Part shown: positions 6,612 to 25,824 of the stretch, piece by piece
Layout of the letters: each line of letters starts with the position of its first letter
Numbering within the stretch: position 1 is the stretch's first letter
Source of the DNA: Candidatus Sulfotelmatobacter sp.
Lineage (GTDB): Bacteria > Acidobacteriota > Terriglobia > Terriglobales > Acidobacteriaceae
Length of the DNA: 29,198 bases
Assembly: GCA_030045935.1 (NCBI GenBank)
Contig: JASIEN010000401.1
Coordinates: forward strand, 1-29,198
Reading direction: 5' to 3'
Position numbers and translations under genes: made by a program
Notes under the pieces: generated by a model
What the model saw: only the letters and a program-made list of their open reading frames with translations
What the model was told of the DNA's origin: nothing
Database searches by the model: none

Positions 6612-6627
6612 TGTGACCCCAATCACA
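6612..6627. promoter_or_regulatory. Perfect CRP-type box between divergent bfr and the acyl-CoA ligase gene
   Basis: TGTGA-CCCCAA-TCACA. A very degenerate partner GATGA-CCCGAG-CCCTA begins 22 bp downstream, at 6634. Confidence 0.7.
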
Positions 6628-6730
6628 AGAAAGGATGACCCGAGCCCTAACGACGCAATTAATCGATCAGGCAGAATTAAAAAAGGACTACCATAAGCGA
6701 CGATTAACTCTCTATGCAGGAGAAGCGAAA

Positions 6731-9490
6731 TTGAGCGCCGCCGACCCAGCCATTTCGAACCGAGCAGACCCGCTGAGCAGCGGAGCGGTTGAGGAGCGGC
6801 ATAGCCTGGATGCACTTTTCCATCCCCGCTCCGTTGCCGTGATTGGCGCAACGGACCGGCCTGCAACCGTGGGCCGGACGATTCTGCAGAATCTTCTGCG
6901 TCCAGAGTTTCGCGGAAAGGTGTACGCTGTCAATCCGCAACGCGCCGAAGTTCTTGGCCTCAAGTCCTACAAAAGCATTCGCGATCTTCCCGAGCGTATA
7001 GATCTGGCGGTGCTGGCGACACCGGCGGCTACGATCGCAGCGCTGATTGGGGAGTGCGTCGATGCGGGTGCGCGCAGCGCGATTGTGGTCTCCGCAGGAT
7101 TCCGCGAGCGTGGGACTGCGGGAGCAGAGCTGGAGCAGCAGATCCGAAAGCAACTGGACCGGGGCGCGATGCGTTTGATTGGACCGAACTGCCTGGGAGT
7201 CATGAATCCCGGGGTTGGACTGAATGCGACTTTTGCCAAGGATTTGCCGAGGACCGGCAGCGTCGCTTTCCTCAGCCAAAGCGGCGCGCTGCTCACCTCA
7301 ATTCTCGATTGGAGCCAGCGCGAGCAGGTTGGATACAGCGCGATCGTCTCGACCGGGTCCATGCTGGATGTTGGCTGGGGCGATCTGATCTACCATTTCG
7401 CCGATGATCCGCGCACCAAAAGCATTCTTCTTTATATGGAGTCGGTGGGCGATGCGCGGTCATTTCTGTCGGCGGCACGAGAAGTGGCGTTGAGCAAGCC
7501 GATCATCGTTATCAAGGCTGGCAGATCGGAAGCAGGAACCAGGGCAGCGGCCTCGCACACTGGCACTCTGACCGGGAGCGATGAAGTGCTGGAGGCAGCT
7601 TTCCGGCGCAGCGGCGTGCTGCGTGTGCAGAGCATCGCAGATCTTTTCTACATGGCGGAGGTCCTGGGCAAACAGCCGCGGCCTCTCGGGCCTCGACTTA
7701 CAATCCTCACTAACGCAGGGGGTCCGGGTGTGCTGGCGGCTGATTCTTTGGTAGCCAATCATGGCGAACTGGCTCCGCTTTCCGAACACAGCTTGCAGGC
7801 CTTAAACGAGTTCTTGCCCGAGCACTGGAGCCATAACAATCCCATTGACGTGCTGGGCGATGCCGATTCTGAACGCTACGGAAAAGCCCTCGAGATCGCG
7901 TCCAAAGATCCTAACAGTGACGGCTTGCTCACCATTTTGTGCCCGCAAGGCATGACCGATCCTTCCGACGTCGCAACCCGGCTGAAAGCATACGCGCGCT
8001 CCACCGGCAAGCCGTTGCTGGCGAGCTGGATGGGCGGTGTCAGTACGGCGGAGGGCATAAATATTCTGAACGCAGCCGGAGTGCCGACCTTCAATTATCC
8101 CGATACCGCGGCGCGCGTGTTTACGTACATGTGGCGCTATACCTACAACCTGCGGAGCCTTTACGAAACCCCAAGCGTGGCGGAAGGGCCGGAACTCGAC
8201 AATGCTTCGCGGGAACAGGTGCGCGGCATCATCGATAAGGCGCGTGCATCCGGGCGAACGCTGCTCGACGAGTTTGAATCGAAGAAACTTCTGTCGGTTT
8301 ACGGAATACCTACGGTTGAGACGCGCGTCGCGCGCAATGTGGACGAGGCTCTAGCGCAGGCTCGGGAGATCGGATTTCCGGTTGTGCTGAAGGTTCTTTC
8401 CCAGACGATCACCCACAAAACTGACGTGGGCGGAGTCAAGCTGAACCTGCGCGATGAAGATGCAGTGCGGGCTGCGTATGCCGCAATCCAATCGTCGGTG
8501 ACGGAGAAAGTGGGCGGCAGCCAATTCGCCGGCGTGACGGTACAACCTATGGTAGGGCTGGAAGGGTATGAGTTGATCATCGGCAGCAGCATCGATCCCC
8601 AGTTCGGGCCGGTGCTGCTGTTCGGCTCGGGCGGTCAGTTGGTTGAGGTTTACCAGGACCGCGCGCTCGCGCTGCCCCCGCTGAACACGACGCTGGCGCA
8701 GCGCATGATGGAACAGACCCACATTTTTCGCGCACTGAAAGGTGTGCGCGGACGCAAGCCGGTTGACCTGGCAGCGCTCGAGGGCTTGTTGGTCCGCTTC
8801 GGTCAGCTCGTGATCGAGCAACCGTGGATTGCGGAGATCGATATCAATCCGCTTCTCGCTTCCTCCGAGCGGCTGCTGGCACTGGATGCGCGGGTCGTAC
8901 TGCATCCGCCATCGATGAAGCCGGAACAGTTGCCGAAACCCGCCATTCGTCCCTATCCGTCGCAATATGTAACTCAGTGGAGGATGAAAGATGGCAGGGA
9001 AGCGACGATCCGGCCGATTCGTCCGGAAGATGAGCCACTGATGGTTGATTTTCATGGAACGCTTTCCGAAAGGACGGTCTATCTGCGTTACTTTTCCGCG
9101 ATGAGCCTGGGCAAGCGCGTCGATCATGAGCGGCTGCTGCGCATCTGCTTTGGAGGTTACGACCGGGAAATCGTGCTGGTGGCCGACGCCAAGGATCCCG
9201 CCACTGGCAACCATAAAATTCTTGGCGTGGGGCGCCTGAATAAGCTGCATACCGAGAAGGAGGCAGAAGTTGCGGTTCTGGTTTCAGATCCCTACCAGCA
9301 ACAGGGGGTGGGGACGGAATTGCTTCGCTGTTGCCTAGAGGTTGCGAAGAAAGAAAAACTTTCCCGCCTGGTGGCCGAGTTGTTGTTCGACAACGTGGGA
9401 ATGGAAAGGCTTTTCAAGAAATTTCATTTCACCTTCCGCACGCATGAAAATTCAGAATCGATCACCGCGGCTTTGGAGCTTCAGAACTGA
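6731..9490 (+). CDS. ADP-forming acyl/acetate-CoA ligase fused to a C-terminal GNAT (Pat/YfiQ-like architecture)
   Basis: CoA-binding AVIGAT, IGPNCLG, SQSGA, AASHTG, NAGGPGV, ATP-grasp HKTDVGGV and EIDINP, and [18 protein letters not shown] at 6731 with AGGAG 8 nt upstream is preferred; the ORF is open from ATG 6635. Confidence 0.9.
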
Positions 9491-9539
9491 CGGAACCCAT
9501 TCTTACTGTGTGACATCGAAATGAAAGAGCAGGTTTCGC

Positions 9540-10898
9540 ATGGACGCACTACTGCTGCACCGCATTCACTTTGCTTTCACGATTACCTTCCACTATTTGT
9601 TCCCTCAATTGACAATGGGTCTGTCGTTGCTGATTGTTGCCCTGAAAACAGCCGCGATTCGCAGCAAGGATGAGCGATACAACCAGGCGGCGCGCTTCTG
9701 GGCCAAGGTGCTGGCGGTCAATTTTCTTATGGGAGTCGTCACCGGCATTCCCATGGAATTTCAGTTCGGAACCAACTGGTCGCAATTTGCGCGCACTACC
9801 GGGGGCGTCATCGGCCAGCCGCTGGCGATGGAGGGAGTATTTTCGTTCTTCCTCGAGTCGGCATTTCTGGGATTGTTCCTTTTCGGAGAAAAACGCTTGT
9901 CGGCCTGGGGCCATTGGACTTCCGCGCTGCTGGTTTTTATCGGCTCGTGGATTTCAGGCTTTTTCATCATTGTCACCAATGCGTGGATGCAGCATCCCGT
10001 CGCCTATCGCGTACTTCCCAACGGAGTTTATGAAGTCACCAGCTTCTGGGGGTTGCTGACCAATCCATGGGCATTGTTGCAGTATGCCCACAACATGTCG
10101 GGGGCGGTGATCACAGCGGCTTTTGTGATGTCGGCAGCCGGAGCATTTTATGTTCTGGAAAACAGATTTGCAGATCACGGGCGAATTTTTCTGCGGGTCG
10201 GCGTGACTGCGGGAGTAATTGCCTCAATCACGCAAATTTTCCCCACCGGCGATCTGCATGGCCGCTACATGGCCAAACACCAGCCGGCAACGATCGCGGC
10301 CATGGAGGGGCTCTTCAATTCACGCACGGGCGCACCCATTGTGCTGATCGGACAACCTGACGAGGTCGCGCGCCGGATCGACAATCCCATCGCGGTGAAT
10401 GACGTTCTAAGTTTTCTGATTTATGGCACTACCAAGGCAGAAGTTACAGGGCTGGACCGATTTCCGCGCGAGGACTGGCCCGAGCCGATGCCTCTGCTAT
10501 TTTACGTCTATCACATCATGGCCGGACTGGGAACTTACTTTGTGTTCGTCATGATCGTTGCCGCGTTGTCTCTCTGGAAAGGAAAGCTGTATCACACACG
10601 CTGGATACTTTGGCCGCTACTGTTGAGCTTTCCGTTTCCGTATATCGCAAATACGGCCGGCTGGCTGACGGCTGAACTGGGGCGGCAGCCGTGGGTTGTC
10701 TACGGACTGATTCGGGTCCCGGAGGGCTATTCGAAATATGTTTCTTCGGGGAATGCGCTGTTTACGCTGATGGGATTTATGGGTCTCTACACCGTGCTTT
10801 CGATCTTGTTTATCGTGCTTATCTACCGAATCGTCGACGCGGGCCCTGCCGTGCCTGCGGCAGCGGAGAAGGAATTTGCGTCAGTGACTCCGGATTAG
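9540..10898 (+). CDS. cydA: Cytochrome bd ubiquinol oxidase subunit I (short Q-loop)
   Basis: FHYLF (His19 equivalent), GIPMEFQFGTNW, EGVFSFFLES, NAWMQHP, AHNMSG, AAMEG, YHIMAG and ELGRQPW. Confidence 0.97.
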   Translation: MDALLLHRIHFAFTITFHYLFPQLTMGLSLLIVALKTAAIRSKDERYNQAARFWAKVLAVNFLMGVVTGIPMEFQFGTNWSQFARTTGGVIGQPLAMEGVFSFFLESAFLGLFLFGEKRLSAWGHWTSALLVFIGSWISGFFIIVTNAWMQHPVAYRVLPNGVYEVTSFWGLLTNPWALLQYAHNMSGAVITAAFVMSAAGAFYVLENRFADHGRIFLRVGVTAGVIASITQIFPTGDLHGRYMAKHQPATIAAMEGLFNSRTGAPIVLIGQPDEVARRIDNPIAVNDVLSFLIYGTTKAEVTGLDRFPREDWPEPMPLLFYVYHIMAGLGTYFVFVMIVAALSLWKGKLYHTRWILWPLLLSFPFPYIANTAGWLTAELGRQPWVVYGLIRVPEGYSKYVSSGNALFTLMGFMGLYTVLSILFIVLIYRIVDAGPAVPAAAEKEFASVTPD

Positions 10899-10908
10899 AG
10901 GAGCGAAT

Positions 10909-11955
10909 ATGGGATTCATATGGTTCTGGGTGGTTGCGGTCATGCTGGTTGCCTACGTGGTGCTCGATGGCTTCGACATCGGAGTTGGTATTTTGCACCT
11001 ATTCGTGGCCCAGACTGAACCACAGCGTCAGGTCACTCTGCACAGCATTGGCCCCGTCTGGGACGGAAATGAAGTCTGGCTGTTGGCGAGCGGAGGCACA
11101 CTTTACTTCGCGTTTCCGCTGCTTTACGCATCAGCGTTCAGTGGATTCTATCTGGCCCTCATGATCGTGCTCTGGTTGCTGATCGGTCGCGCGGCGGCGA
11201 TCGAGCTGCGAATGAAAATCAATAACGGCGTGTGGAGAGCTTTTTTCGACGGCGTCTTTTTCATTTCCAGTGCACTGCTCGCCGTTTTTTACGGAGCAGC
11301 GCTGGCGAACGTGATCCGTGGAGTTCCGCTGGGCGCCGACGGTTACTTCTTTCTTCCGCTTTGGACTGACTGGCGCGTCGGTCCGCAGCCAGGAATTCTC
11401 GACTGGTATACGGTCATCGGAGGAGTGGTTGCCCTGGTGGCTCTGGCGGAACACGGAGCTCTCTATCTCGCCGTAAAAACCGAAGGCGAGTTGCAGCAGC
11501 GGGCGAGGGCAACAGGCCGCGTTCTTTGGATCGCGCTGTTTGCGTTGACCATAATCAGTCTGCCCGCTTCGGTGATTGCCCGGCCTGACACTCTCGACAA
11601 TTATCGGAAATACCCTCTTACATTCGCCGTCCCTGTGATCGTTTTCCTTTCATTGCTGGGAATGATCCATTTCTGCCGCAAAGCGGAGGATCGCAAAGCT
11701 TTCGGCTGCTCGTGCGTCTATCTCAGCATCATGATGGCCGGAGCGGCGATCGGGCTGTATCCCCGGCTACTGCCTGCAACAACCGGAGCGCAATATGACA
11801 TCACTATCGATCACGCATTGTCAGGCCCGCACACTTTGCATGTGGGACTGGCCTGGTGGGGCTTTGGAATGCTGCTCGCGTTAACGTATTTTGTAATTGT
11901 TTATCGCATGTTCCGGGGCAAAGTTCCGGTCGAGAGTGGAGGCTACGAGCACTAA
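10909..11955 (+). CDS. cydB: Cytochrome bd ubiquinol oxidase subunit II
   Basis: YVVLDGFDIG, IGPVWDGNEVWL and FPLLYA motifs; GAGGAG RBS; 10 nt after cydA. Confidence 0.97.
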   Translation: MGFIWFWVVAVMLVAYVVLDGFDIGVGILHLFVAQTEPQRQVTLHSIGPVWDGNEVWLLASGGTLYFAFPLLYASAFSGFYLALMIVLWLLIGRAAAIELRMKINNGVWRAFFDGVFFISSALLAVFYGAALANVIRGVPLGADGYFFLPLWTDWRVGPQPGILDWYTVIGGVVALVALAEHGALYLAVKTEGELQQRARATGRVLWIALFALTIISLPASVIARPDTLDNYRKYPLTFAVPVIVFLSLLGMIHFCRKAEDRKAFGCSCVYLSIMMAGAAIGLYPRLLPATTGAQYDITIDHALSGPHTLHVGLAWWGFGMLLALTYFVIVYRMFRGKVPVESGGYEH

Positions 11956-11957
11956 TT

Positions 11958-12345: not shown

Positions 12346-15138
12346 ATGAGCGACGGGCGTGTCCTCGCGGAGCAAATGTCGGCCAGCACACACTCGTGGA
12401 GAACCTTGCCCGTCGGCGGACGGATCTTTGTCGGTCTGGTCGTCCTTGCGGGAATGGCATCGCTGTTACAGGCTGCCATTTACCAGAACAGCAAAAACAT
12501 TGCCGAATTTATCTGCTATCTAGGGGTCGCGATTCTGGCGTCCCGGCTGCGGGTAAGTTTGCCTGGCATAACCGGCACTCTCTCGGTCAATTTCCTCTTC
12601 GTTCTGGTGGCCGTAGCCGAGTTGAGCTACAGCGAAGCGGTGACTTTGGCAGCGGTTTCGATGCTGGCCCAGAATTTGTATCAGCAGCGCCCGGGCGCGA
12701 TTCAGTTGACGTTCAACCTTTGCACGGCATCGCTTTCGACCGCCCTGGCGTATGTGGTTTACCACAATGCGCTTGTACTGGAGTTTGTCAATAACCGGCC
12801 GTTGACTCTATGTGTTGCGGCTGCTACGTATTTCCTTGTCAATGCCGGGTGCGTGGCGATTGTTATTTCGGTCAGTGAGGCGAAGTCGCTGCGCAGCATT
12901 CTGGTTGACTGCTATTTCTGGTCGTTTCCCTACTACCTGGTGGGAGCGGGCATCGCGGGTGCGATCGGCTGGTTTAACCGCGAGTTCAACTGGGAAACTT
13001 CGCTGCTCTTCGTTCCAGCCATGTATCTCATCTACGGGTCATACCGCCTCTATCTGGGGAAACTCGAGGATGAGAAGCGCCATGTGGAAGAAATTGCCGA
13101 CCTGCATCTAAGAACGATCGAGGCGTTGGCGCTGGCGATTGAGGCAAAGGACCAGACCACACACGAACACCTGCAACGAGTCCGGGTTTATGCCATCGAG
13201 GTGGCAAAAGAGCTAGGCATGAAAGGCAATGATCTGGAGGCCCTTCATGCGGCCGCGCTACTTCACGATATCGGCAAGTTGGCCGTGCCGGAGCACATTA
13301 TCTCGAAGCCGGGAAGATTGACGCCGGAAGAGTTCGAGAAGATGAAGATTCACACCGTGGTGGGGGCGGAAATTCTGGAGCGGGTGCGGTTTCCCTATCC
13401 GGTTGTACCGATTGTGCGGGCGCACCATGAAAAATGGGACGGCTCGGGTTATCCCTATGGATTGAAGGCGGAAGAAATTCCGATGGGAGCACGCATTCTT
13501 TCGGCCGTCGATTATCTGGATGCGCTTGCCTCGGACCGGCAGTATCGCCGCGGCGTGCCTCTGGACGAAGTAATGAAGCGCCTCACGGAGGAATCGGGAA
13601 AATCCTTCGACCCGAAAGTGGTTGATGTTCTCCAGAAGAGATATCGACAGCTTGAGAGGTTGGCAATGGCGCAGTCTTCCCACGATAGCGGGCTGGGCCT
13701 GCCCAGCAACCTTAAGATTGAACGTGGTATTGCGCCGGCGGCAGGTTTTGAGAAGGCTGCAGTGGTCGACTTGCCGGGCCGCGAAGCTACATTCCTGGCG
13801 TCGATTGCGGCTGCGCGGCAGGAGGCACAAGCTCTGTTCGAGCTAAGCCAGGATCTTGGAGCCTCGCTGAGCTTGGGTGAGACACTATCGGTCTTTTCAG
13901 TGAAGCTGAAGCCGATGGTTCCTTACGATTCGATTGCCATTTATGTTCTGCGCGACAGCATGCTTGTGCCGGAGTATGTGAACGGCGACAATTACCGTCT
14001 CTTTTCTTCTTTGCGAATCCCCGTGGGCCAGGGGCTTTCAGGTTGGGTTGCGCAGAACAAAAAACCAATTGTGAACGGGAATCCCTCGGTCGAACCGGGG
14101 TACTTGAACGATCCCGCAAAGTTCAGCACGCTGCGGTCGGCGCTGGCGGTGCCATTGGAGGGAGTAAGCGGCATCACCGGAGTTTTGGCGCTCTATCGAA
14201 GTGACAGGGACGCCTTTACCTCAGACCATTTAAGAATTCTGCTGGCCGTAAGCGGCAAGATGGCGCTGGCCATTGAGAACGCACTCAAATATGAACAGGC
14301 GGAAAGCTCCGCCACTACCGATTATCTCACCGGCTTGCCCAATGCGCGTTCGCTTTTCCTGCAGCTCGACCGCGAACTGGCGCGCTGCAAGCGCGACAAT
14401 CTGCCGCTTGCCGTGATGGTCTGTGATATGAACGGCTTCAAGAAAATCAACGACCGTTTCGGACACCTTGAGGGTAATCGCGTGCTGCGGCTCTTCGCGC
14501 AGGCGCTGAAAGACAGTTGCCGCGAGTACGACTACGTGGCGCGTATGGGTGGAGACGAGTTCGTGATCATCGCTCCGGGTCTGCCGGCGGATGCCGCCGC
14601 CAAGAAAGTGGAACAGATTCGTCCGCTGGCACGGCAGGCGGGATTCGAGGTTTGTGGCGAGGAAATTTTGTCGCTGAGCGTAGGCGTAGCGATTTCTCCC
14701 GTGGACAGCAGTGATGCGGAGCAATTGCTGACGCAGGCCGACCGCCGCATGTATCTGGAAAAGCAGAAGCAGCCGTCGCAGAAGGACCAGCGGTTGCACA
14801 CGCGCATGAAGTGCCGGCTTACCATCGAACTGCATCCGCAGCCGGGAGGAGAAACAATTTTTGGAAATATGATCGATATCAGTCTGGGGGGGTGCTATGT
14901 GGAGACGAGCGCCATTCTGGCACCGGAGACTAACCTTAAGCTGGTATTCTCCATCGATGACGGTACGCTCACGGCCGAAGGTACGATTGCCAGAATTCAT
15001 CCTGGATCCGGCGTAGCGGTGAAATTCAAAGAGATGAGCCGCGAAACGCGCGAGAAAATGTACAGGGTGCTGGAGTTTGTGCAGAATACGACGAATATAT
15101 ACAACGACCGCTACATGCAGAGTTTGTTCAAGCAGTAA
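12346..15138 (+). CDS. Membrane-anchored c-di-GMP protein: multi-TM sensor, HD-GYP, GAF, GGDEF and PilZ domains
   Basis: About 7 hydrophobic segments; LLHDIGK and HHEKWDGSGYP; GAF (GQGLSGWV, LAVPL); DYLTGLPN and RMGGDEF; C-terminal RLHTR and DISLGG. Confidence 0.92.
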   Translation: MSDGRVLAEQMSASTHSWRTLPVGGRIFVGLVVLAGMASLLQAAIYQNSKNIAEFICYLGVAILASRLRVSLPGITGTLSVNFLFVLVAVAELSYSEAVTLAAVSMLAQNLYQQRPGAIQLTFNLCTASLSTALAYVVYHNALVLEFVNNRPLTLCVAAATYFLVNAGCVAIVISVSEAKSLRSILVDCYFWSFPYYLVGAGIAGAIGWFNREFNWETSLLFVPAMYLIYGSYRLYLGKLEDEKRHVEEIADLHLRTIEALALAIEAKDQTTHEHLQRVRVYAIEVAKELGMKGNDLEALHAAALLHDIGKLAVPEHIISKPGRLTPEEFEKMKIHTVVGAEILERVRFPYPVVPIVRAHHEKWDGSGYPYGLKAEEIPMGARILSAVDYLDALASDRQYRRGVPLDEVMKRLTEESGKSFDPKVVDVLQKRYRQLERLAMAQSSHDSGLGLPSNLKIERGIAPAAGFEKAAVVDLPGREATFLASIAAARQEAQALFELSQDLGASLSLGETLSVFSVKLKPMVPYDSIAIYVLRDSMLVPEYVNGDNYRLFSSLRIPVGQGLSGWVAQNKKPIVNGNPSVEPGYLNDPAKFSTLRSALAVPLEGVSGITGVLALYRSDRDAFTSDHLRILLAVSGKMALAIENALKYEQAESSATTDYLTGLPNARSLFLQLDRELARCKRDNLPLAVMVCDMNGFKKINDRFGHLEGNRVLRLFAQALKDSCREYDYVARMGGDEFVIIAPGLPADAAAKKVEQIRPLARQAGFEVCGEEILSLSVGVAISPVDSSDAEQLLTQADRRMYLEKQKQPSQKDQRLHTRMKCRLTIELHPQPGGETIFGNMIDISLGGCYVETSAILAPETNLKLVFSIDDGTLTAEGTIARIHPGSGVAVKFKEMSRETREKMYRVLEFVQNTTNIYNDRYMQSLFKQ

Positions 15139-15303: not shown

Positions 15304-15900
15304 TTAGCCCTCTGTAACCGTCTCCGCCTCAAGCTGCGCTTCAACGTTGTCCGGCGCTGCAGTCGACCCGCATTCGAATCCCTTGTCGAATGCTTGTAAA
15401 TTGAGCTCGCGAAAATTCGATGGCACTGAATCTGCCACAGCTTTGCGGACTGCGTCTGGATCGAGCAAGCCCGTCAGCGCGGTAAAGAACCCCACCATCA
15501 CTGAATTCAAGACCATCTTTTTTCCGAGTCCCTCGGCAATGCGGGTTGCGGGAATTCCGTAAACTTTGATCTCTTTTTTCTTATCAAGTCCGGTCACGCG
15601 CACCAGATCCTGCTCAACGATCAATGTGCCGCCATCTTTCAACTCTGGTGCGAAGCGGTTGTAGGCCTCCTGCGACATCACGACCATGATGTCGGGCTGG
15701 GTGACGTAAGGATAAGCGACTGGCGCGTCAGAAATGATGAGCTGCGCGCTGCAGGCGCCGCCGCGCGCCTCGGGCCCAAAATTCTGCGTGACCGTGGCGT
15801 ATCCCTTCTCGAAAATCGAAGCCGCCTTGCCCAGTACCATAGCCGAGAGGATCACTCCCTGTCCGCCGAAGCCTGCGATGCGAATTTCCGTCAGCTGCAT
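15304..15900 (-). CDS. korC: 2-oxoacid:ferredoxin oxidoreductase gamma subunit
   Basis: IRIAGFGGQGVI, FGPEARGGACSA and MVLNSVMVG. Overlaps the beta-subunit stop by 10 nt. Confidence 0.9.
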   Translation of the reverse strand: MQLTEIRIAGFGGQGVILSAMVLGKAASIFEKGYATVTQNFGPEARGGACSAQLIISDAPVAYPYVTQPDIMVVMSQEAYNRFAPELKDGGTLIVEQDLVRVTGLDKKKEIKVYGIPATRIAEGLGKKMVLNSVMVGFFTALTGLLDPDAVRKAVADSVPSNFRELNLQAFDKGFECGSTAAPDNVEAQLEAETVTEG

Positions 15901-16814
15901 ACCTCCGCCTCCATGGGTTCCACGAATCTGTCGCCGAGCGAGTCAACGTACTGTGCGCGCATCATCGATTGATAGTCGGGCCGCTCGCGATCGACAAACT
16001 TGCCCACGATGATCTCTCCACTGATGGTGAGCCCGACTTCGCTGGTGGGCGCGCCGTTCTTCACTTTGCTCTTTGCCTTGTAATACTTCATCGTATCCAG
16101 GCTGTCGCCTAACTTGTTGCGCCGCTGATACAGGGTTGGGCAGGGCGAAATCACCTCGATAAACGAGAATCCCTTCTTTTGGAATGCTTCGCCGATGGCG
16201 CGCGCCAGCTGGCGCACGTGGAAAGTCGTCCAGCGCGCGACGTAGACTGCACCGGCTGCTTCCACCAGGTGCGGCAGATTGAACGACGGCTCAAATGTTC
16301 CGTACGGATTTGTCGACGTCGTTGCATGATCGGGCGTGGTCGGTGCCGTTTGTCCGCCCGTCATGGCATAAATCAGATTGTTCACGCAAATGACTTTGAG
16401 ATCGATATTGCGACGCGCGGCGTGAATCAGATGATTGCCGCCGATGGCAGAGAGATCCCCATCGCCGGAGTAGACGACGACGTTGAGCTTCGGATTGGCC
16501 AGTTTCAGCCCGGTGGCAAACGGAATCGCGCGTCCGTGCGTGGTATGGAAAGAATCGAGCGCCACATATCCGGCAACGCGGCCCGTGCAGCCGATGCCGG
16601 AGACCAAAGCCAGCGATTGCAGATCGATTTTCGATTCAATCAGGGCCCGCGCAAAGCAGTTAACCGTGGTACCGATGCCGCACCCCGGGCACCAGATGTG
16701 AGGCATGCGGTCAGTGCGCAGAAACGGCTCGACCGGATTCACCAAGTCATCATCCGGCAGATCAGTATTCAGCAGATCGTTATTTAGCAGATCAGTATTC
16801 AGATCGGTGCTCAT
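15891..16814 (-). CDS. korB: 2-oxoacid:ferredoxin oxidoreductase beta subunit (TPP-binding)
   Basis: WCPGCG, SGIGC, HTTHGRA, TPP motif GDGD...NN, MTGGQ and SPCP. ATGA overlap with the alpha subunit. Confidence 0.93.
   Translation of the reverse strand: MSTDLNTDLLNNDLLNTDLPDDDLVNPVEPFLRTDRMPHIWCPGCGIGTTVNCFARALIESKIDLQSLALVSGIGCTGRVAGYVALDSFHTTHGRAIPFATGLKLANPKLNVVVYSGDGDLSAIGGNHLIHAARRNIDLKVICVNNLIYAMTGGQTAPTTPDHATTSTNPYGTFEPSFNLPHLVEAAGAVYVARWTTFHVRQLARAIGEAFQKKGFSFIEVISPCPTLYQRRNKLGDSLDTMKYYKAKSKVKNGAPTSEVGLTISGEIIVGKFVDRERPDYQSMMRAQYVDSLGDRFVEPMEAEVCS
16758..16802 (-). repeat. 3 x 15-bp tandem repeat at the 5' end of korB
   Basis: On the + strand: CAGATCAGTATTCAG / CAGATCGTTATTTAG / CAGATCAGTATTCAG, encoding LNTDL-LNNDL-LNTDL. 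Confidence 0.85.
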
Positions 16815-17968
16815 CGGCTCGCCTCCACGATCACTTTCAGAATGTCTTCGGGACGATGTACGCCGCCGCCCGCGTGGGTTAGAGAAAATGTCTTTGCCCG
16901 GCCAGCCGCCGCACGCTCAACTTCCAGCGCCATCTGCCCCAGATTCAACTCGGGCACGACGAATGCTTTGACCCTGCCTGCGAGCTGCCGAATTTTCTTC
17001 TCGGGGAACGGCCAGGCGGTAATGAGCCGCAACTTGCCCACGCGCAGACCTTGCTCGCGCGCTGTGTCGATCGCGCGCTGCGCCACACGCGAAGTGATTC
17101 CATAAGAAACCACGACGACATCAGCATCCTTCAAATGCGCTTCTTCAAACATGGCAATGCGGTCGGCAGCCGAGGTAATTTTGTTTTGCAACCGCCGTAC
17201 CAGCTTGTCCTGAGTCTGCGGCGTCATGTTGGGATAGCCGCGCTCGTCGTGGGTCAGTCCGGTGACATGAAATCTGTAGCCCTCGCCTGCGTGGGCGATT
17301 TCAGGAACCAAGTCGCCGTTGGTCTTGTATGGCTGAAATTCTTCGACCGATTCCTTCGTATGCTTGCGCGGAACGATTTCAATCTGGTCGGCCGGCGGGA
17401 TCACAACTTTCTCAGTCATATGCCCGACGACCTCGTCCATCATGAACATTACGGGCACGCGAAATTCTTCGGACAAGTTGAAGGCCTTGATGGTCAGATC
17501 GAAGCATTCCTGCGGAGAATTCGGGCAGAGAGCAATGACGGCGTAGTCGCCGTGCGATCCCCAGCGTGCCTGCATCATATCTGCTTGTGCGGGTAGCGTT
17601 GGCAAGCCGGTCGATGGGCCTCCACGCTGCACATCGACAAACACGCAGGGCGTTTCCGTCATGGCGGCGTAGCCGATGTGCTCCATCATTAACGAGAAGC
17701 CAGGGCCAGAGGTCACAGTAAATGCTTTGGCCCCAGCCCACACCCCGCCTTGCAGTGTGATCGAGGCGGCCAGTTCGTCTTCCATCTGAATGAAGGTTCC
17801 GCCGACGGTGGGCACTCGTGCGGCGAAGCGTTCGACTACTTCAGTGGAAGGTGTAATTGGATATCCGGCCGCAAAACGTGCTCCCGCTGCCAACGCGCCT
17901 TCGCAGCAGGCGTGATCGCCATCGATAAAGTGCTCGCCGGTAAGAACGCCACGTGGATCGGCTTTCAT
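16811..17968 (-). CDS. korA: 2-oxoacid:ferredoxin oxidoreductase alpha subunit
   Basis: AGYPITPSTE, QMEDE, TSGPGFSLMME, QRGGPSTG and QARWGSHGD. Start is ATG 17968 (GGAGG RBS, ATGA overlap with delta), not the 18151 start in the ORF track. Confidence 0.93.
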   Translation of the reverse strand: MKADPRGVLTGEHFIDGDHACCEGALAAGARFAAGYPITPSTEVVERFAARVPTVGGTFIQMEDELAASITLQGGVWAGAKAFTVTSGPGFSLMMEHIGYAAMTETPCVFVDVQRGGPSTGLPTLPAQADMMQARWGSHGDYAVIALCPNSPQECFDLTIKAFNLSEEFRVPVMFMMDEVVGHMTEKVVIPPADQIEIVPRKHTKESVEEFQPYKTNGDLVPEIAHAGEGYRFHVTGLTHDERGYPNMTPQTQDKLVRRLQNKITSAADRIAMFEEAHLKDADVVVVSYGITSRVAQRAIDTAREQGLRVGKLRLITAWPFPEKKIRQLAGRVKAFVVPELNLGQMALEVERAAAGRAKTFSLTHAGGGVHRPEDILKVIVEASR

Positions 17969-18195
17969 TTCTTGCCTCCGTCTGCATTCTTCTTGCCGTA
18001 GATCGCGAAATCGGGACAGTACATGCCGCACAGGTCGCAACCGCTGCACTTTTCCGGGTGTACCACGTGCGGCACGTGATAACCCTTGGCGTTGAATGCC
18101 GAAGAAAACGCCAGCACATGGCTGGGACAGAACTCGATGCAGAAGCCGCAAGACTTGCAGCGCTCGGCGACAATTGAAACCCTTCCTTTTGTCAC
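17965..18195 (-). CDS. korD: 2x[4Fe-4S] ferredoxin (delta subunit)
   Basis: CKSCGFCIEFCP and CSGCDLCGMYCP. GTG at 18195 after a GGGGG tract is preferred; the ORF is open from 18246. Confidence 0.9.
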   Translation of the reverse strand: MTKGRVSIVAERCKSCGFCIEFCPSHVLAFSSAFNAKGYHVPHVVHPEKCSGCDLCGMYCPDFAIYGKKNADGGKK

Positions 18196-18292
18196 AAGGC
18201 CCCCACGCTTAATTAAGAAGTGCGCCTGATAGAAGTGATGGAACACTTCCGAAAGGTCGTTGCCAGTATGGCGTTCACGATGGGCAGGGGGA

Positions 18293-18330
18293 TGTGATGG
18301 GAATCACCGATCTAGGTGAGGGTGGGCACA
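18293..18330. promoter_or_regulatory. Tandem CRP-type boxes upstream of korDABC
   Basis: TGTGA-TGGGAA-TCACC (18293) and GGTGA-GGGTGG-GCACA (18315), 22 bp apart. CATACT lies on the - strand at 18270-18265. Confidence 0.65.
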
Positions 18331-18401: not shown

Positions 18402-18439
18402 TGTGTTCTGCAACACAAATTCCTGTGACTCGGGTCATA
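18402..18439. promoter_or_regulatory. Tandem CRP-type boxes upstream of the cytochrome c gene
   Basis: TGTGT-TCTGCA-ACACA (18402) and TGTGA-CTCGGG-TCATA (18424), 22 bp apart. Confidence 0.65.
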
Positions 18440-18487
18440 GCGTGCTATCGTCCACTTCACTAATCATTAGAAGTTGACCATACAGTA

Positions 18488-18620: not shown

Positions 18621-18652
18621 ATAGCGACGATATGGTCTACAAGGAGAACATC

Positions 18653-19099
18653 ATGTCCATGAACAAGTTGAGCTTGATTGTTGCTGCACTCATGTTGTCA
18701 AGCTGCGCGGCAGTAGCGCAGGATCAAACGCCCGAGCAGGGAAAGGTCATAAAACACACCGCGATACAAGCGACATCGGCCGCGTCCGGCAAGGAAATGT
18801 ACGATTCCTATTGTGCTGTCTGCCATGGCACGGATGGCAAAGGTAACGGCCCGGCGGCGAGCGCCTTGAAGACTATGCCCACGGATCTCACGGCATTGAG
18901 CAAGAACAACGGCGGAAAATATCCCAGCCTGAAAGTTTCGGCCGCGATCCGTGGCGATGCCAACGTTCCTGCCCACGGCACCAAAGATATGCCGGTGTGG
19001 GGATCACTGTTCCGGGGAATGAGCCAGGGGCATGAGAGCGAAGTCCAGCAGCGAATTGCCAATCTGACGAAGTATGTCGAGTCGTTGCAGACGAAGTAG
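18653..19099 (+). CDS. Secreted monoheme class I cytochrome c
   Basis: AAGGAG RBS, signal peptide (LSLIVAALMLSSCAAVA), CAVCH heme motif and distal Met in DMPVWG. Confidence 0.92.
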   Translation: MSMNKLSLIVAALMLSSCAAVAQDQTPEQGKVIKHTAIQATSAASGKEMYDSYCAVCHGTDGKGNGPAASALKTMPTDLTALSKNNGGKYPSLKVSAAIRGDANVPAHGTKDMPVWGSLFRGMSQGHESEVQQRIANLTKYVESLQTK

Positions 19100-20262: not shown

Positions 20263-20321
20263 GTTATCTCCTCCGTTGTGCGTGGTTTTCTCAGTGGCCT
20301 CCGCGATACTGTGCCTAATGG

Positions 20322-23300
20322 TTATTTGGTTGCCGCCGATGTGGTTTCTGCGACCGCCTTGGCCAGCTCCTTGCCGTTCTTGCGCTGCGCCAGATATTCG
20401 TACAACCGGTATCGAGTTTCCGTATCATGCTGCGCCTGTTCCCAAAGATGTTTGGCGTCCTCCGGCTTGCTTTTCAGCAGCATCTTGAAACGCGTTTCCA
20501 TGTTCATGAAGTCCTGCACCTTGCGCGTAGGAGCCCGCGAGTCAAGAATCAGAGGATTTTCACCCGCCGCGGCGCGCTCGGGATTATAGCGGTAGAGCAG
20601 CCACTGACCGGAGTCTACTGCCGCTTTCTGATCGGACATGCCGGTTGTCATGTTGATGCCATGGGCAATGCAGTGTGAGTAGGCGATGATCAGGCTTGGC
20701 CCGTCATAGGCCTCGGCTTCGAGGAAAGCTTTGAGGGTGTGCTCGTCTTTCGCGCCCATGGCTACACTGGCGACGTAAATGTTTCCGTAGCTCATCGCAA
20801 TGAGGCCGAGATCTTTCTTGGGACCCGGTTTGCCGCCGGCGGCAAACTTCGCCACCGCCGCTCGCGGAGTGGATTTCGAAGCCTGGCCTCCGGTGTTGGA
20901 GTAAACCTCGGTGTCGAGCACCAATACGTTGACGTTACGGCCGCTGGCCAGCACATGATCAAGGCCGCCGTAGCCGATGTCATAAGCCCAGCCGTCACCC
21001 CCGACGATCCAAACGCTTTTCTTGACCAGCAAATCGGCGATGGCGAGCAGTTGCCGGGCCTCCGAAGAATTCAGGCCGCGCAGTTTTTCTTTCAGCAGCT
21101 CAACCCGCTGCCGCTGCTCATGAATATCGGCCTCGTCCTTTTGCGGGAAGGCGGTCAGTGCAGTCGCGAGTTCTGTGCCGATCGTGTTGGCCAACCGCTT
21201 TACCAATTCGCGTGCAAATTCAGTCTGCTTGTCGATGGAGAGCCTGAATCCGAGGCCAAATTCGGCATTATCTTCGAATAACGAATTCGACCACGCCGGG
21301 CCACGCCCTTGCGCATTCTTGGCCCACGGAGTGGTGGGAAGATTTCCACCATAAATCGAAGAGCATCCGGTCGCGTTGGCGATCACGGCGCGGTCGCCAA
21401 ATAACTGTGACATCAGTTTCAGGTAAGGGGTTTCGCCGCAGCCTGTGCAAGCACCGGAGAACTCGAACAATGGCTCCTGAATCTGCTGCTGGCGAATGTT
21501 AGCGACTTTGATGTTTCGGCGGTCGAGTTCGGGAATTTTCAGGAAGAACTTCCAGTTCTCGCTTTCAGGAGCACGCAGGGGCGGCTGTGGCACCATGTTG
21601 ATTGCCTTCAACCGCGTTTCCGTCTTGTTCTTTGCCGGACAAACTTCTACACAGATGCCGCAACCCGTGCAGTCTTCCGGTGCAACCTGAATGGTGTATT
21701 TCAACCCCTGCCATTCTTTGTCGCGCGCGTCGGTGGATTTGAAGGTGGCCGGAGCACCTGCCAGTTCTTTAGAGTCGTACACCTTCATGCGGATCACAGC
21801 ATGCGGGCAGACCATGGCGCATTTGCCACATTGAATGCAGACCTTTTCATCCCACGCGGGAATCTCCAGGGCCAGATTGCGCTTCTCCCATTTGGCTGTG
21901 CCGGTAGGGAAAGTGCCGTCGACAGGAAATGCGCTCACGGGAAGCTCATCGCCACGCCCGGCGTACATCGTGGCCAGAACATCTCTCTCGAAAGCAGGCG
22001 CCAAGATGGAAAACGGCGCGGGCATCTCGATCGTGCTGGTCACGCTGGCGGGGACTTTAACTTCAAACAGGTGCGCCAGCGCTTCATCCACCGCTTTCAT
22101 GTTTTTCTGGACAATCTCTTCGCCTTTTTTGCCGTAAGTGTCGCGGATGGATTTGCGAATCGCGTCGATGGCCTGGTCTCCCGGTAGAACCTTCGAGATC
22201 GCGAAGAAGCAGACCTGCAAGATCGTGTTCATGCGGCTGCCCATACCGGTATCGCGCGCAACCTGATAGGCGTCGATCACATAAAATTTCGCTTTCCTTG
22301 CGATGATCTGCTGCTGAACTGCACGCGGCAAATGATTCCAGACCTCATTTGGACCGAATGGGCTGTTGAGCAGGAAAGTTCCACCCTCAACCAGTGCGCT
22401 CAGCATGTCGTAGCGTTCGAGAAAAATCCATTGATGACATGCCACGAAATTCGCTTGCGAAACCAGATAGCTCGAGCGGATCGGTTGCGGGCCGAAGCGC
22501 AAGTGCGAGACCGTCATCGCGCCTGACTTTTTCGAGTCGTAAACAAAGTACCCTTGGGCGTAGTTGTCTGTGTTCTCGCCGATGATCTTGATCGAGTTCT
22601 TGTTCGCGCCGACAGTCCCATCCGCGCCCAAACCATAAAACAACGCACGCACAACGTTGTCCGGTTCAGTCGAAAATTCCGGGTTGTACGACAGGCTGGT
22701 GTGGCTTACGTCATCCAGAATGCCAACCGTGAAATGTTCTTTTGGTTTTTGCGCTTTGAGATTGTCGTAAACCGCTTTGACCATCGCAGGAGTAAATTCC
22801 TTCGACGATAATCCATAGCGTCCGCCAATCACGAACGGCATTGTCTTCAGCTTGCCGTAATTTCGATTCAACCCCTCGTGCAGTGCGTTCACCACATCGA
22901 CGTACAGCGGTTCGCCAACTGCCCCCGCTTCCTTGGTGCGGTCCAGAACTGAAATCCTCTTTACGCTTGCCGGCAATGCTTCCATGAAATCTTTAACCGA
23001 AAACGGCCGGTACAAGCGCACTTTCAGCAGTCCGAGCTTTTCTCCTCGCGCATTCAGATGTTCCACTGTTTCGTGGGCGACTTCTGCGCCTGATCCCATC
23101 ATCACGATCACGTGTTCTGCATCCGGGGCGCCAATGTAATCGAACAGGTGATAAGAACGGCCGACCACCTGCGCGAATTTCTCCATCGCGGCGCGCACCT
23201 TGTCCGGGCATTCGTCGTAAAAGGAATTCGCGCGCTCGCGCATTTGAAAAAAAACATCGGGGTTTTGCGCCGTCCCGCGCAAAATGGGGTGGTCCGGCGA

Positions 23301-23930
23301 CAGCGCACGGCCGCGATGCTCGAAGACGCGGTCCATATCAATGAGGGCGCGCATGTCGTCTTCGCTCAGCATCTCGATCTTGTTCACTTCGTGAGAAGTG
23401 CGAAAGCCATCGAAGAAATGCAGGAAAGGAATACGCGACTCCAAAGATGAAGCGTGCGCAATCAAGGCCATATCCATGGCTTCCTGCACGGAATTGGAGC
23501 TGAGCATGGCCCAGCCCGTGGTGCGGCAGAACATCACGTCACTGTGATCGCCGAAAATGGAGAGCGCGTGCGTGGCCACGGTGCGAGCCGAGATATGGAA
23601 CGTTGTTGGCGTCAATTCCCCGGCAATTTTGTTCATGTTGGGGATCATCAACAGCAGGCCCTGCGATGCGGTAAACGTGGTTGATAGCGCGCCTGTCTGT
23701 AGAGCCCCGTGAACCGCACCCGCCGCGCCGCCCTCGCTTTGCATTTCAATGACATGCGGCACCGTCCCCCAGACGTTTTGTATGCCCTGCGAGGCCCACT
23801 CGTCGGCCCATTCGCCCATGTTTGAAGAAGGAGTGATCGGGTAAATGGCGATCACTTCGTTGGCGCGGTAAGCGACATATGCCACCGCCTCGTTGGCGTC
23901 CATGGTCTTGATCTTGCGTTTTGCGGTCAT
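20322..23930 (-). CDS. nifJ: Pyruvate:ferredoxin (flavodoxin) oxidoreductase, homodimeric type
   Basis: YPITPS, EMQSEGGAAG, CIQCGKCAMVCP, CTGCGICVEVCP, GACTGCGE, TPP motif GGDGWAYDIG and EVYSNTGGQ; 1202 aa. Confidence 0.98.
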   Translation of the reverse strand: MTAKRKIKTMDANEAVAYVAYRANEVIAIYPITPSSNMGEWADEWASQGIQNVWGTVPHVIEMQSEGGAAGAVHGALQTGALSTTFTASQGLLLMIPNMNKIAGELTPTTFHISARTVATHALSIFGDHSDVMFCRTTGWAMLSSNSVQEAMDMALIAHASSLESRIPFLHFFDGFRTSHEVNKIEMLSEDDMRALIDMDRVFEHRGRALSPDHPILRGTAQNPDVFFQMRERANSFYDECPDKVRAAMEKFAQVVGRSYHLFDYIGAPDAEHVIVMMGSGAEVAHETVEHLNARGEKLGLLKVRLYRPFSVKDFMEALPASVKRISVLDRTKEAGAVGEPLYVDVVNALHEGLNRNYGKLKTMPFVIGGRYGLSSKEFTPAMVKAVYDNLKAQKPKEHFTVGILDDVSHTSLSYNPEFSTEPDNVVRALFYGLGADGTVGANKNSIKIIGENTDNYAQGYFVYDSKKSGAMTVSHLRFGPQPIRSSYLVSQANFVACHQWIFLERYDMLSALVEGGTFLLNSPFGPNEVWNHLPRAVQQQIIARKAKFYVIDAYQVARDTGMGSRMNTILQVCFFAISKVLPGDQAIDAIRKSIRDTYGKKGEEIVQKNMKAVDEALAHLFEVKVPASVTSTIEMPAPFSILAPAFERDVLATMYAGRGDELPVSAFPVDGTFPTGTAKWEKRNLALEIPAWDEKVCIQCGKCAMVCPHAVIRMKVYDSKELAGAPATFKSTDARDKEWQGLKYTIQVAPEDCTGCGICVEVCPAKNKTETRLKAINMVPQPPLRAPESENWKFFLKIPELDRRNIKVANIRQQQIQEPLFEFSGACTGCGETPYLKLMSQLFGDRAVIANATGCSSIYGGNLPTTPWAKNAQGRGPAWSNSLFEDNAEFGLGFRLSIDKQTEFARELVKRLANTIGTELATALTAFPQKDEADIHEQRQRVELLKEKLRGLNSSEARQLLAIADLLVKKSVWIVGGDGWAYDIGYGGLDHVLASGRNVNVLVLDTEVYSNTGGQASKSTPRAAVAKFAAGGKPGPKKDLGLIAMSYGNIYVASVAMGAKDEHTLKAFLEAEAYDGPSLIIAYSHCIAHGINMTTGMSDQKAAVDSGQWLLYRYNPERAAAGENPLILDSRAPTRKVQDFMNMETRFKMLLKSKPEDAKHLWEQAQHDTETRYRLYEYLAQRKNGKELAKAVAETTSAATK

Positions 23931-23998
23931 TATTCCCCCGCTGGCTGTTGTTTAGCTGAGCCGATGATTAAGCATGGATGATGGGCGCCGATGTCGTC

Positions 23999-24036
23999 TG
24001 CCAAGTCGGTCACATGAGGATGTGATCTTCGTCACA
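23999..24036. promoter_or_regulatory. Tandem CRP-type boxes upstream of nifJ
   Basis: TGCCA-AGTCGG-TCACA (23999) and perfect TGTGA-TCTTCG-TCACA (24021), 22 bp apart. Confidence 0.72.
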
Positions 24037-24120
24037 TCGGCAAAATGAACGGCTTAGACCAGCCGGCGTGAAACTCGGTCGTGGCTCAGTTTGAAAACAA
24101 AGCGACCCGCACAATCGGGC

Positions 24121-24266
24121 GTCATCCTGAGCGCAGGCGCTTTTCAGCCGGGGCGAAGCATCTCCTGCCCCACGGAATTGTGCAGCCGGAGATCCCCGTT
24201 CGCCGCGCTCACTTGCTCAGGGCAGGCTCTCGCCCGGCTGGTGGAAACGCGGGCGTTCGGGATGAC
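24121..24266. mobile_element. 146-bp MITE/REP-like palindromic element
   Basis: Terminal inverted repeats GTCATCCTGAGCG / CGTTCGGGATGAC (both mismatches G-U compatible) and an inner GCGAAGCATCTCC / GGAGAT...TTCGC stem. Related copies at 19139 and 4889. Confidence 0.6.
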
Positions 24267-24333
24267 ACTATGTGAGAACGCGGAAAGTTCAAGCCGGACC
24301 ACTACCTGAAATTCAGCCCGTCACGCGCAGTTG

Positions 24334-24371
24334 TGTGACGCAGGTCACATCTGCGCGTGCCCCATGGCACA
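24334..24371. promoter_or_regulatory. Tandem CRP-type boxes upstream of the Crp/Fnr regulator gene (candidate autoregulation)
   Basis: Perfect TGTGA-CGCAGG-TCACA (24334) and CGTGC-CCCATG-GCACA (24356), 22 bp apart. GACACT at 24393. Confidence 0.72.
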
Positions 24372-24426
24372 GCCAAGTGGATCGTTGCAAACGACACTGA
24401 AAAGGAATGGGAGGAAGGTGGTCCCC

Positions 24427-25146
24427 ATGAACTCACCCTATGGACTGGAAATTGTCGAAAGCTGCCTGACTTGCAAGTTTCGCTCAGATCGCATCTTTTG
24501 CGACTTGCAGCCTTCGGCGTTGCAGGCTTTCGAAGAAATCAAATACACGACGGCCTATCCTGAGGGCGCCATTTTGTTTGTGGAAAAGCAGGCGCCACGC
24601 GGGATTTTCGTCATCTGCAAGGGCAGTGTAAAGATGTCGGTCAGCGCTCCCAATGGCAAGACCATGATTGTGAAAATTGCCGACGCCGGCGAAGTGCTCG
24701 GCCTGAGCGCCACCGTTTCCGGCCGGCCTTACGAAGTGACCGCCGAGACCATCGATCCCTGCCAGATCAACTTCGTCAAGCGAGAGGATTTTCTGCGCTT
24801 TCTGAAGAATGACATCCAGGTTTGCTTCAAAGTTGCGGAGCACCTGAGCGAAAAGTATCACACGGTGTGCAACGAAATCCGCTGTCTAGGCCTGTCACAC
24901 TCGGCTGCGGAAAAACTGGCAAAGCTGCTGCTGGAATGGAGCTCCAAGAATGGGGAGGCTTCCAGACCTGAACCGCGCGTAAAGCTGCGGCTTACCCACG
25001 AGGAGATCGCGCAGATGATCGGGACCTCACGCGAGACGGTCACTCGCCTGCTCGCCGATCTGAAGAAACACCAGATCCTGAACACTCGCGGTTCCACGCT
25101 GGTCATACGCAATCAGGCGGCGCTGCGCGAATTGGCCAACAATTGA
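24427..25146 (+). CDS. Crp/Fnr-family transcriptional regulator with an N-terminal Cys cluster
   Basis: cNMP-type beta-barrel (LFVEKQAPRGIFVICKGSVK, GEVLG), wHTH LTHEEIAQMIGTSRETVTR, and N-terminal C13-x2-C16-x8-C25. ATG 24427 follows GGAGG. Confidence 0.93.
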   Translation: MNSPYGLEIVESCLTCKFRSDRIFCDLQPSALQAFEEIKYTTAYPEGAILFVEKQAPRGIFVICKGSVKMSVSAPNGKTMIVKIADAGEVLGLSATVSGRPYEVTAETIDPCQINFVKREDFLRFLKNDIQVCFKVAEHLSEKYHTVCNEIRCLGLSHSAAEKLAKLLLEWSSKNGEASRPEPRVKLRLTHEEIAQMIGTSRETVTRLLADLKKHQILNTRGSTLVIRNQAALRELANN

Positions 25147-25150
25147 TGTT

Positions 25151-25206
25151 TTGCCGGAGCACTTGTTTCCGGCAACCACACTGAAGCAGAACCACAAGTC
25201 TGCTTC
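25151..25206 (+). other. Two adjacent perfect 8-bp hairpins in the regulator-hemerythrin spacer
   Basis: TTGCCGGA/TCCGGCAA (25151-25175) and GAAGCAGA/TCTGCTTC (25183-25206). No U-tract follows. Confidence 0.5.
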
Positions 25207-25309
25207 TCAGCACCGGTGCGCCATTCGGCGTCTTCCACTTAAAGTTCTGCATCGTTCCGCCGATAGCTCTCGATGATCCTCAAATCCGTACCGTAGATTG
25301 GAGATGACG

Positions 25310-25717
25310 ATGGCTTTGGTGACATGGGAACCCTCTTATAGCGTGAAGGTGCAGCGGTACGATGAAGACCACAAGAAGCTGTTTGCCATGATCAACGAGT
25401 TGCATGAAGCCATGCTGGCGGGCAAAGGAAAAGAGAAAATCCAGGAGACGGTGAAGAAGCTTGGCGAGTATACAAAGTTCCACTTTTCGGCAGAAGAAGC
25501 ACAACTTGCAAAGACGAATTACCCGGATTTGAGTGCGCATCGGGCGGAGCACCAGGCTTTCATCAACCGGATCCAAAAGTTTGAACAGGAGATTGCAGAA
25601 GGCAAACTCAACCTGTCGGTTTCGGTGGGAATGTTTCTCAACGAATGGCTAGCCAACCACATTCGCAAAACCGACCAGAAATATTCGAAATATCTTAACG
25701 AACACGGAGTTTCGTAA
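25310..25717 (+). CDS. Single-domain bacteriohemerythrin
   Basis: Complete di-iron ligand set: DEDH, HFSAEE (HxxxE), HRAEH (HxxxH), WLANHIRKTD (HxxxxD). GGAG lies 6 nt before ATG 25310. Confidence 0.93.
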   Translation: MALVTWEPSYSVKVQRYDEDHKKLFAMINELHEAMLAGKGKEKIQETVKKLGEYTKFHFSAEEAQLAKTNYPDLSAHRAEHQAFINRIQKFEQEIAEGKLNLSVSVGMFLNEWLANHIRKTDQKYSKYLNEHGVS

Positions 25718-25786
25718 GCATCGGCGGCGCGCCAGCGATGCTGCCGTAGCCCGCGTATCCCCAACATTCCAGGCATCTTCGTCGCT

Positions 25787-25824
25787 GGTGATCGCCGTCA
25801 CAATTTTCCGTGACCATAGTCACC
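25787..25824. promoter_or_regulatory. Tandem CRP-type boxes upstream of the radical SAM gene
   Basis: GGTGA-TCGCCG-TCACA (25787) and CGTGA-CCATAG-TCACC (25809), 22 bp apart. TATCGT at 25846. Confidence 0.65.

Follow-up and report, generated by a model that had tools for sequence, protein, structure and literature searches.

CRP-type palindromic boxes, set in pairs exactly 22 base pairs (bp) apart, were found at five promoters in a 29,198-nucleotide (nt) stretch of DNA (contig JASIEN010000401.1, positions 1 to 29,198; this whole stretch is called the window) from a Candidatus Sulfotelmatobacter metagenome-assembled genome from peat soil (4.12 Mb, 75% complete). The same spacing prevailed in the rest of the genome, in the genus and in the class Terriglobia. 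With moderate confidence, the boxes are regarded as operators of an uncharacterised Crp/Fnr subfamily, whose abutting dimers would bind together and activate genes of low-oxygen energy and carbon metabolism. The identity of the binding protein, the cooperativity, the activation and the sensed signal were all inferred from the sequence. The initial annotation of this DNA had reported the pairs and proposed that one Crp/Fnr protein binds them cooperatively and switches on most of the gene cluster; its observation was confirmed and its interpretation was partly supported.

A box was defined as TGTGA-N6-TCACA (16 bp), with mismatches scored over the 10 fixed positions. All five pairs of the initial annotation were recovered in place by a pattern search of the window, each with a period of 22 bp. 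They are listed below together with a further site at 6612.

18293..18330, minus strand: pair of the 2-oxoacid:ferredoxin oxidoreductase (kor) operon; proximal box 18293-18308 (1 mismatch), distal box 18315-18330 (2 mismatches)
18402..18439, plus strand: cytochrome c pair; distal box 18402-18417 (2 mismatches), proximal box 18424-18439 (1 mismatch)
23999..24036, minus strand: pair of nifJ (pyruvate:ferredoxin oxidoreductase, PFOR); weak proximal box 23999-24014 (2 mismatches), perfect distal box 24021-24036 (0 mismatches)
24334..24371, plus strand: pair in the regulator's own promoter; perfect distal box 24334-24349 (0 mismatches), weak proximal box 24356-24371 (3 mismatches)
25787..25824, plus strand: AhbD-like radical SAM/ywiC pair; distal box 25787-25802 (1 mismatch), proximal box 25809-25824 (2 mismatches)
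6612..6649, no strand assigned: perfect box 6612-6627, with 5 mismatches at the +22 position (6634-6649)

The window contained 19 boxes with at most two mismatches, compared with 9.8 ± 3.0 in shuffled sequences, and the number 19 was reached in 0 of 100 shuffles. Perfect boxes started at 6612, 24021 and 24334. The weak proximal box of the regulator's own promoter had the sequence CGTGCC..GGCACA. The box at 6612 was located between the bacterioferritin gene bfr on the left and the acyl-CoA synthetase/GNAT-cydAB operon on the right. It had been counted as a sixth site with a very degenerate partner at +22; the perfect box itself was upheld, and the partner was dismissed, its five mismatches being indistinguishable from chance. 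The site is effectively a single box. A box upstream of bfr was confined to this genome, one weaker case and the close relative G056, in which two boxes (2+0 mismatches) formed a true pair; a genus-wide conserved pair at this position was rejected.

The pairs of the whole genome were counted at every spacing from 16 to 60 bp, with summed mismatches of at most 4 and at most 2 in the better box. At 22 bp there were 18 pairs, 13 of them outside the window, versus 0-6 pairs (mean approximately 1.7) at each other spacing; no pair enrichment was observed at 32-33 or 43-44 bp within this range. Triple boxes were also considered and rejected, as the genome had no enrichment at 44 bp. Perfect boxes numbered 23 versus approximately 3 expected from the base composition, and both the pairs and the perfect boxes were nearly all intergenic. 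Boxes with one mismatch occurred near the chance rate (90 seen versus approximately 88 expected); hence, perfect boxes were used for the later work. The base profile around all 113 boxes of the genome with at most one mismatch gave almost no signal.

For the comparison across genomes, the search pattern was a perfect box with GTG-N8-CAC 1-31 nt downstream of it. It was applied to three sets: the genus (41 genomes), the class Terriglobia (121 genomes) and the rest of the phylum (approximately 138 sampled genomes). Among the 148 matches in the genus, 87 had a spacing of 22 bp, the spacings of 21 and 23 bp occurred once each, and the reversed-pattern control yielded 1 match in the same genomes. 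In the class, 58 of the 68 matches were at 22 bp, and the matches came from families f1, f6, f8 and f9. The phylum outside the class gave 14 matches with scattered spacings, only one of which was at 22 bp; hence, this set serves as a negative control. Moreover, the surroundings of the regulator genes in 80 further species contained 191 pairs at 22 bp versus at most 28 at any other spacing. The sharp peak at 22 bp that the initial annotation had named as support was therefore obtained in the genome and its relatives, with a spacing that was fixed rather than random. The layout is not peculiar to the genus, because at least four families of Terriglobia share it.

The weak partner boxes, whose loss from orthologous promoters would have counted against the initial proposal, were kept in the promoters of approximately 80 species, degenerate forms included. 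The own promoter of the regulator had the consensus TGTGAG..TCACA-N6-TGTGCC..GCACA followed by GCCAA (approximately 80 orthologous promoters). In the nifJ promoter, a perfect box was followed by TGTGAC.TGCCTTGCT (47 distinct orthologous sequences). The consensus of the radical SAM promoter was sGTGAC..ATCACA, ATTTCC and then GGTGATGA..GTCACC (53 distinct orthologous sequences).

Two other spacings were also conserved in places. Strong boxes 34 bp apart, recurrent and clearly orthologous in at least ten genomes of the genus, formed a second and rarer architecture, with TGTGACAT.AATCACA, 18 nt and TGTGATG.TTATCAC in succession (for example, G015:C143:15270-15318, G005:C141:9705-9753 and G024:C3:1190164-1190212). 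Boxes 26 bp apart with the spacer GCC...CTGG were another conserved alternative (G053:C11:2383-2423, G010:C34:43249-43289, G013:C225:6466-6506, G024:C1:405310-405350 and G055:C70:75608-75648).

When orthologous promoters were anchored on the pair, a conserved -10-like hexamer was revealed 21-22 nt downstream of the proximal box at three promoters, given in the first three lines below; the last two lines give the corresponding hexamers of the remaining pairs in the window.

24393..24398, plus strand: own promoter, GACACT, 21 nt past the proximal box; GA(C/A)ACT at equal distance in orthologues
23971..23976, minus strand: nifJ, CATGCT, separated from the proximal box by 22 nt; the gap is 21 nt in most orthologues
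25846..25851, plus strand: radical SAM, TATCGT, 21 nt past the proximal box; orthologue consensus TAT.GT
18461-18466, plus strand: cytochrome c promoter, TAATCA, 21 nt downstream of the proximal box
18265-18270, minus strand: kor promoter, CATACT, 22 nt downstream of the proximal box

Of the 36 flanks of pairs in this genome, 10 had nAnnnT at a gap of 21 nt and 5 at 22 nt, versus approximately 2 at other gaps, and the hexamer was oriented toward the adjacent gene in every case checked. With the hexamer taken as positions -12 to -7, the proximal box would be centred at approximately -41.5 (-42.5 for a gap of 22 nt) and the distal box at approximately -63.5. Poor -10 hexamers combined with the lack of a -35 element are typical of class II promoters that depend on an activator. 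The proposal that the boxes switch genes on was supported by this class II-like geometry, as deduced from the base sequence. The sequencing runs that contained this stretch were all DNA runs of peat and soil metagenomes, with no RNA run among them. The pairs tended to stand before poorer -10 hexamers than single perfect boxes did. One pair (G000:C79:1384-1421) was flanked on either side by a -10-like hexamer at a gap of 21 nt, GAAAAT in the leftward and GAGGAT in the rightward direction; this symmetric pair could serve two divergent promoters, with the proximal and distal roles swapped between them.

The candidate for the protein that reads the boxes is encoded within the window.

24427..25146, plus strand: Crp/Fnr-family regulator (P0001), 239 amino acids, with the Pfam domains cNMP_binding, HTH_Crp_2 and Crp

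The Pfam matches (PF00027, 1.2e-16; PF13545, 7.6e-19; PF00325, 2.2e-09) placed the protein in the Crp/Fnr superfamily. The protein was below the cut-off of every NCBIfam equivalog, with 80 versus 211 bits for FtrB, 74.2 versus 266 bits for CRP (NF008732) and 47.5 versus 228 bits for Fnr. Its nearest solved homologue was the CRP of M. tuberculosis, Rv3676 (E = 3.5e-16). The recognition helix, SRETVTR, was of the CRP type (R-E-x-x-x-R), and RETV(T/S)R was invariant in the 30 readable homologues on which the conservation figures for the helix and the cysteines are based, including the second homologue of the same genome (C697, 46% identity). This helix and the genome enrichment of TGTGA-N6-TCACA boxes together assigned a CRP-type DNA specificity to the regulator. 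Its cysteines are C13, C16, C25, C64 and C112. C13, C16 and C25 were conserved in 29-30 of the 30 homologues and C64 was near-invariant. C112, at a position like that of C122 in FNR, was present in 12 of the 30, only in the close orthologue group, and was replaced by Gly or Ser in paralogues; hence, the fourth ligand may differ between the groups. The signal sensed is probably O2 or redox state, through the conserved N-terminal cysteines.

The occurrence of the regulator followed that of the pairs. A homologue (match at E ≤ 1e-25) was present in 24 of the 26 class genomes with a 22-bp pair and in 18 of the 95 without one, and pairs directly beside regulator genes, in autoregulatory positions, were found in families f1, f6 and f8. 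Genomes of the genus had 1-5 detected homologues with 45-55% identity, and up to 7 were detected in a sister genus. Because the readable ones all had RETV(T/S)R, the part of the initial proposal that assigned the boxes to a single protein received no support.

The gene names given earlier in the window were upheld by Pfam. The predicted target genes and the possible targets of the box at 6612 are as follows.

20322..23930, minus strand: nifJ-type pyruvate:ferredoxin oxidoreductase, predicted target
15304..18246, minus strand: kor operon of four genes (delta-like ferredoxin, alpha, beta and gamma), predicted target; its first gene is the ferredoxin-like subunit at 17965-18246
18632..19099, plus strand: cytochrome c, predicted target
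25881..28075, plus strand: AhbD-like radical SAM/SPASM protein and YwiC-like protein, predicted targets
6044..6520, minus strand: bacterioferritin (Pfam Ferritin; start MKGNPKV), possible target of box 6612
6635..11955, plus strand: ADP-forming acyl-CoA synthetase/GNAT fusion, cydA and cydB, possible targets of box 6612

The radical SAM/SPASM protein (25881-27209) scored 485 bits versus a cut-off of 500 bits for the NCBIfam AhbD heme b synthase. On the basis of this near-cut-off score, the regulon appears to include oxygen-independent heme synthesis, beside the YwiC-like membrane protein. Outside the window, pairs preceded hypD, a NikR/TonB-dependent receptor divergon, two acetyl-CoA hydrolase/transferases and an acetyl-CoA synthetase gene (acs). 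Further pairs preceded a DUF485 gene (the actP partner), a 2-hydroxyacid dehydrogenase, a TonB-domain protein and a KAS III/SDR fusion. Taken with those in the window, the predicted targets look like a switch that governs fermentative, hydrogen and low-oxygen metabolism.

In the proposed mechanism, the regulator (24427-25146) and its paralogues would read TGTGA half-sites through the CRP-type helix. Approximately half of the promoters in the predicted regulon would present two palindromes 22 bp apart from centre to centre, a distance at which two full 22-bp CRP-type sites abut without a gap. One dimer would occupy the class II position at approximately -41.5 in place of a -35 element, and the second would sit directly behind it at approximately -63.5. 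The two dimers would lie side by side on one face of the DNA and aid each other, the strong box loading the weak one, and together they would activate transcription. More tentatively, and on balance with more doubt than belief, the complex may be a defined dimer of dimers on approximately 44 bp, with in-phase bends that wrap the DNA and with activation from the abutting -41.5/-63.5 positions. In this extended form, the arrangement would be the default architecture of an iron-sulfur (O2/redox) sensor with CRP-type specificity, which governs the fermentative, hydrogen and low-oxygen switch in the Terriglobia of peat and soil.

The closest known layout is that of the whiB1 promoter of M. tuberculosis, in which two CRP sites abut, CRP1 at -58.5 and CRP2 at -37.5 (Stapleton et al. 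2010, PMC2844151). Both sites can be occupied at once, occupation of the first improves that of the second, and double occupancy represses transcription (PMC2844151). The two systems share directly abutting CRP-type palindromes, which are 21 bp apart in whiB1 and 22 bp apart here. However, the arrangement is known from one promoter there, whereas it is the common form across a regulon and a class here. Furthermore, the whiB1 sites are 4-5 bp nearer to the transcription start and the proximal one represses, whereas the positions deduced here (-41.5/-63.5), with a weak -10 and no -35, point to activation. Rv3676 also differs from the present regulator in that it lacks the cysteine cluster and responds to cyclic AMP, whereas conserved cysteines are present here. 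A pair at 22 bp was also observed in the own promoter of a paralogue group with approximately 53% identity to P0001, approximately 60 nt upstream of a gene that starts at 1501 (loci L009-L011, L015-L017, L020 and L021). Its strong box ended 16 nt before an extended -10 (TGcTACAAT), with centres at approximately -36.5/-58.5. This layout is similar to the repressive one of whiB1 and hints at negative autoregulation of the paralogue.

The regulator shares the TGTGA half-site and the R-E-x-x-x-R helix with E. coli CRP, and the proximal site lies approximately 21-22 nt from the -10-like hexamer, a distance like that to the -10 element in class II promoters. In E. coli, tandem CRP sites occur at variable and larger distances, which leave room for the alpha C-terminal domain (alpha-CTD) of RNA polymerase between the dimers. 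The present sites differ from those of class III promoters, because they abut at 22 bp and show no enrichment of spacings one or two helical turns larger. FNR of E. coli and Aliivibrio is an O2 sensor whose [4Fe-4S] cluster is bound by four cysteines, three of them N-terminal and one central. The regulator resembles it in having N-terminal cysteines together with a central one (C13, C16, C25 and C112, in the orthologue group) and in its predicted low-oxygen regulon. In contrast to FNR, the helix and box are of the CRP type rather than E-x-x-S-R and TTGAT-N4-ATCAA, and the cysteine motif is C-x2-C-x8-C rather than C-x2-C-x5-C. Pairs of ARG boxes (ArgR) and NrdR boxes are likewise set at fixed whole helical turns, often with one weaker box, and a single oligomer reads both boxes. 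These proteins have unrelated folds and are repressors with known oligomers, whereas the oligomer proposed here is deduced from the layout of the boxes. In the library consulted, which was incomplete, no description was found of such a paired-box grammar for Crp/Fnr proteins or of Crp/Fnr regulation in this lineage.

Several observations limit the proposal of cooperative binding by one protein. The paralogues have the same recognition helix, and therefore the boxes are not assignable to one protein. No rule was found for whether the proximal or the distal box is the stronger of a pair (7 versus 5). The genomes compared are related and are not independent samples, so the pair counts demonstrate conservation rather than independent events. 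Moreover, perfect single boxes were found 21-22 nt before consensus -10 hexamers (TATAAT and TAAAAT), at the following positions.

G000 C203:2270: single perfect box before a carboxyl transferase gene
G000 C241:1213: single perfect box before a gene of unknown function
G000 C591:1147: single perfect box before a fumarase-type lyase gene

Single boxes with a good -10 imply that one dimer suffices at some promoters. The pair is thus not obligatory, given these single boxes and the effectively single site at 6612. Such promoters bring up the reading that the dimers of a pair are independent, the fixed spacing reflecting two contacts with RNA polymerase (the proximal dimer as in class II, the distal one through the alpha-CTD) without any contact between the dimers. 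Both boxes do stand at fixed positions relative to the -10-like hexamer, and single-box class II promoters appear to work in the same genome. However, the spacing between the boxes is stricter (22 bp, with one match each at 21 and 23 bp in the genus) than the gap to the hexamer (21 or 22 nt). In the class I and class III promoters of E. coli, the flexibly linked alpha-CTD also tolerates sites that are displaced upstream by one or two helical turns; spacings of 32-33 and 43-44 bp were not enriched here. The strict box-to-box spacing and the lack of farther enrichment together argue for a direct dimer-dimer contact. Weak boxes with 3-4 mismatches would also hardly be occupied alone, and independent dimers are considered unlikely.

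The multiplicity of homologues would also fit a reading, considered improbable, in which different paralogues occupy the two boxes, so that one promoter integrates two signals. The genus has 1-5 detected homologues (up to 7 in a sister genus) at 45-55% identity, with a common helix in the readable ones, and some weak boxes have a conserved flavour of their own (TGTGCC..GGCACA and GGTGA..TCACC). Nevertheless, an identical recognition helix offers no basis for discrimination between the boxes, and the pair-bearing genomes G060, G069, G087, G089 and G113 showed only one homologue each at E ≤ 1e-25. A whiB1-like band-pass switch, in which a high-affinity distal box activates and a proximal box filled at high regulator activity represses, could draw on the mycobacterial precedent of abutting sites and on the nearest solved homologue being that same CRP. 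The own promoter of the paralogue in relatives, with its pair 5 bp closer to an extended -10 (approximately -36.5/-58.5), also looks repressive. In the window, however, the proximal box is at approximately -41.5 rather than -37.5, the poor -10 hexamers without a -35 are the signature of activator dependence, and the proximal box is the stronger one at five oriented promoters; such a switch is judged very unlikely. The initial annotation had named binding by Rex as an outcome that would overturn its reading. Rex operators have the same TGTGA..TCACA core, but no protein exceeded the family cut-off for the N-terminal domain of Rex (PF06971) in this genome or in the 40 other genomes of the genus, many of them more than 95% complete. 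Furthermore, TGTGA is followed by C or T rather than by the A of the Rex site, TTGTGAA-N4-TTCACAA, and Rex operators can be discarded with near certainty. Of the four refuting outcomes listed in the initial annotation, three (loss of the weak boxes, random spacing and binding by Rex) were looked for, and none of them was observed.

Terriglobia such as Candidatus Sulfotelmatobacter are abundant in peat and soil, and their gene regulation is essentially unstudied. With the paired-box rule, a low-oxygen and fermentation regulon can be predicted for hundreds of uncultured genomes from their sequence alone. The pairs also lend themselves well to studying cooperation between abutting CRP-type dimers and their contacts with RNA polymerase; in the literature found, this arrangement has been studied only at one mycobacterial promoter, where it represses.

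Two minor features were also recorded. In a sister genus, a region of approximately 30 kb (G092:C34:56924-87378) contained five 22-bp pairs and three regulator homologues, one of them a fragment, and it looks like a dense regulatory island comparable to the window. Within the window, a large multi-domain open reading frame of 930 amino acids (12346-15138) was located between the cyd and kor operons.

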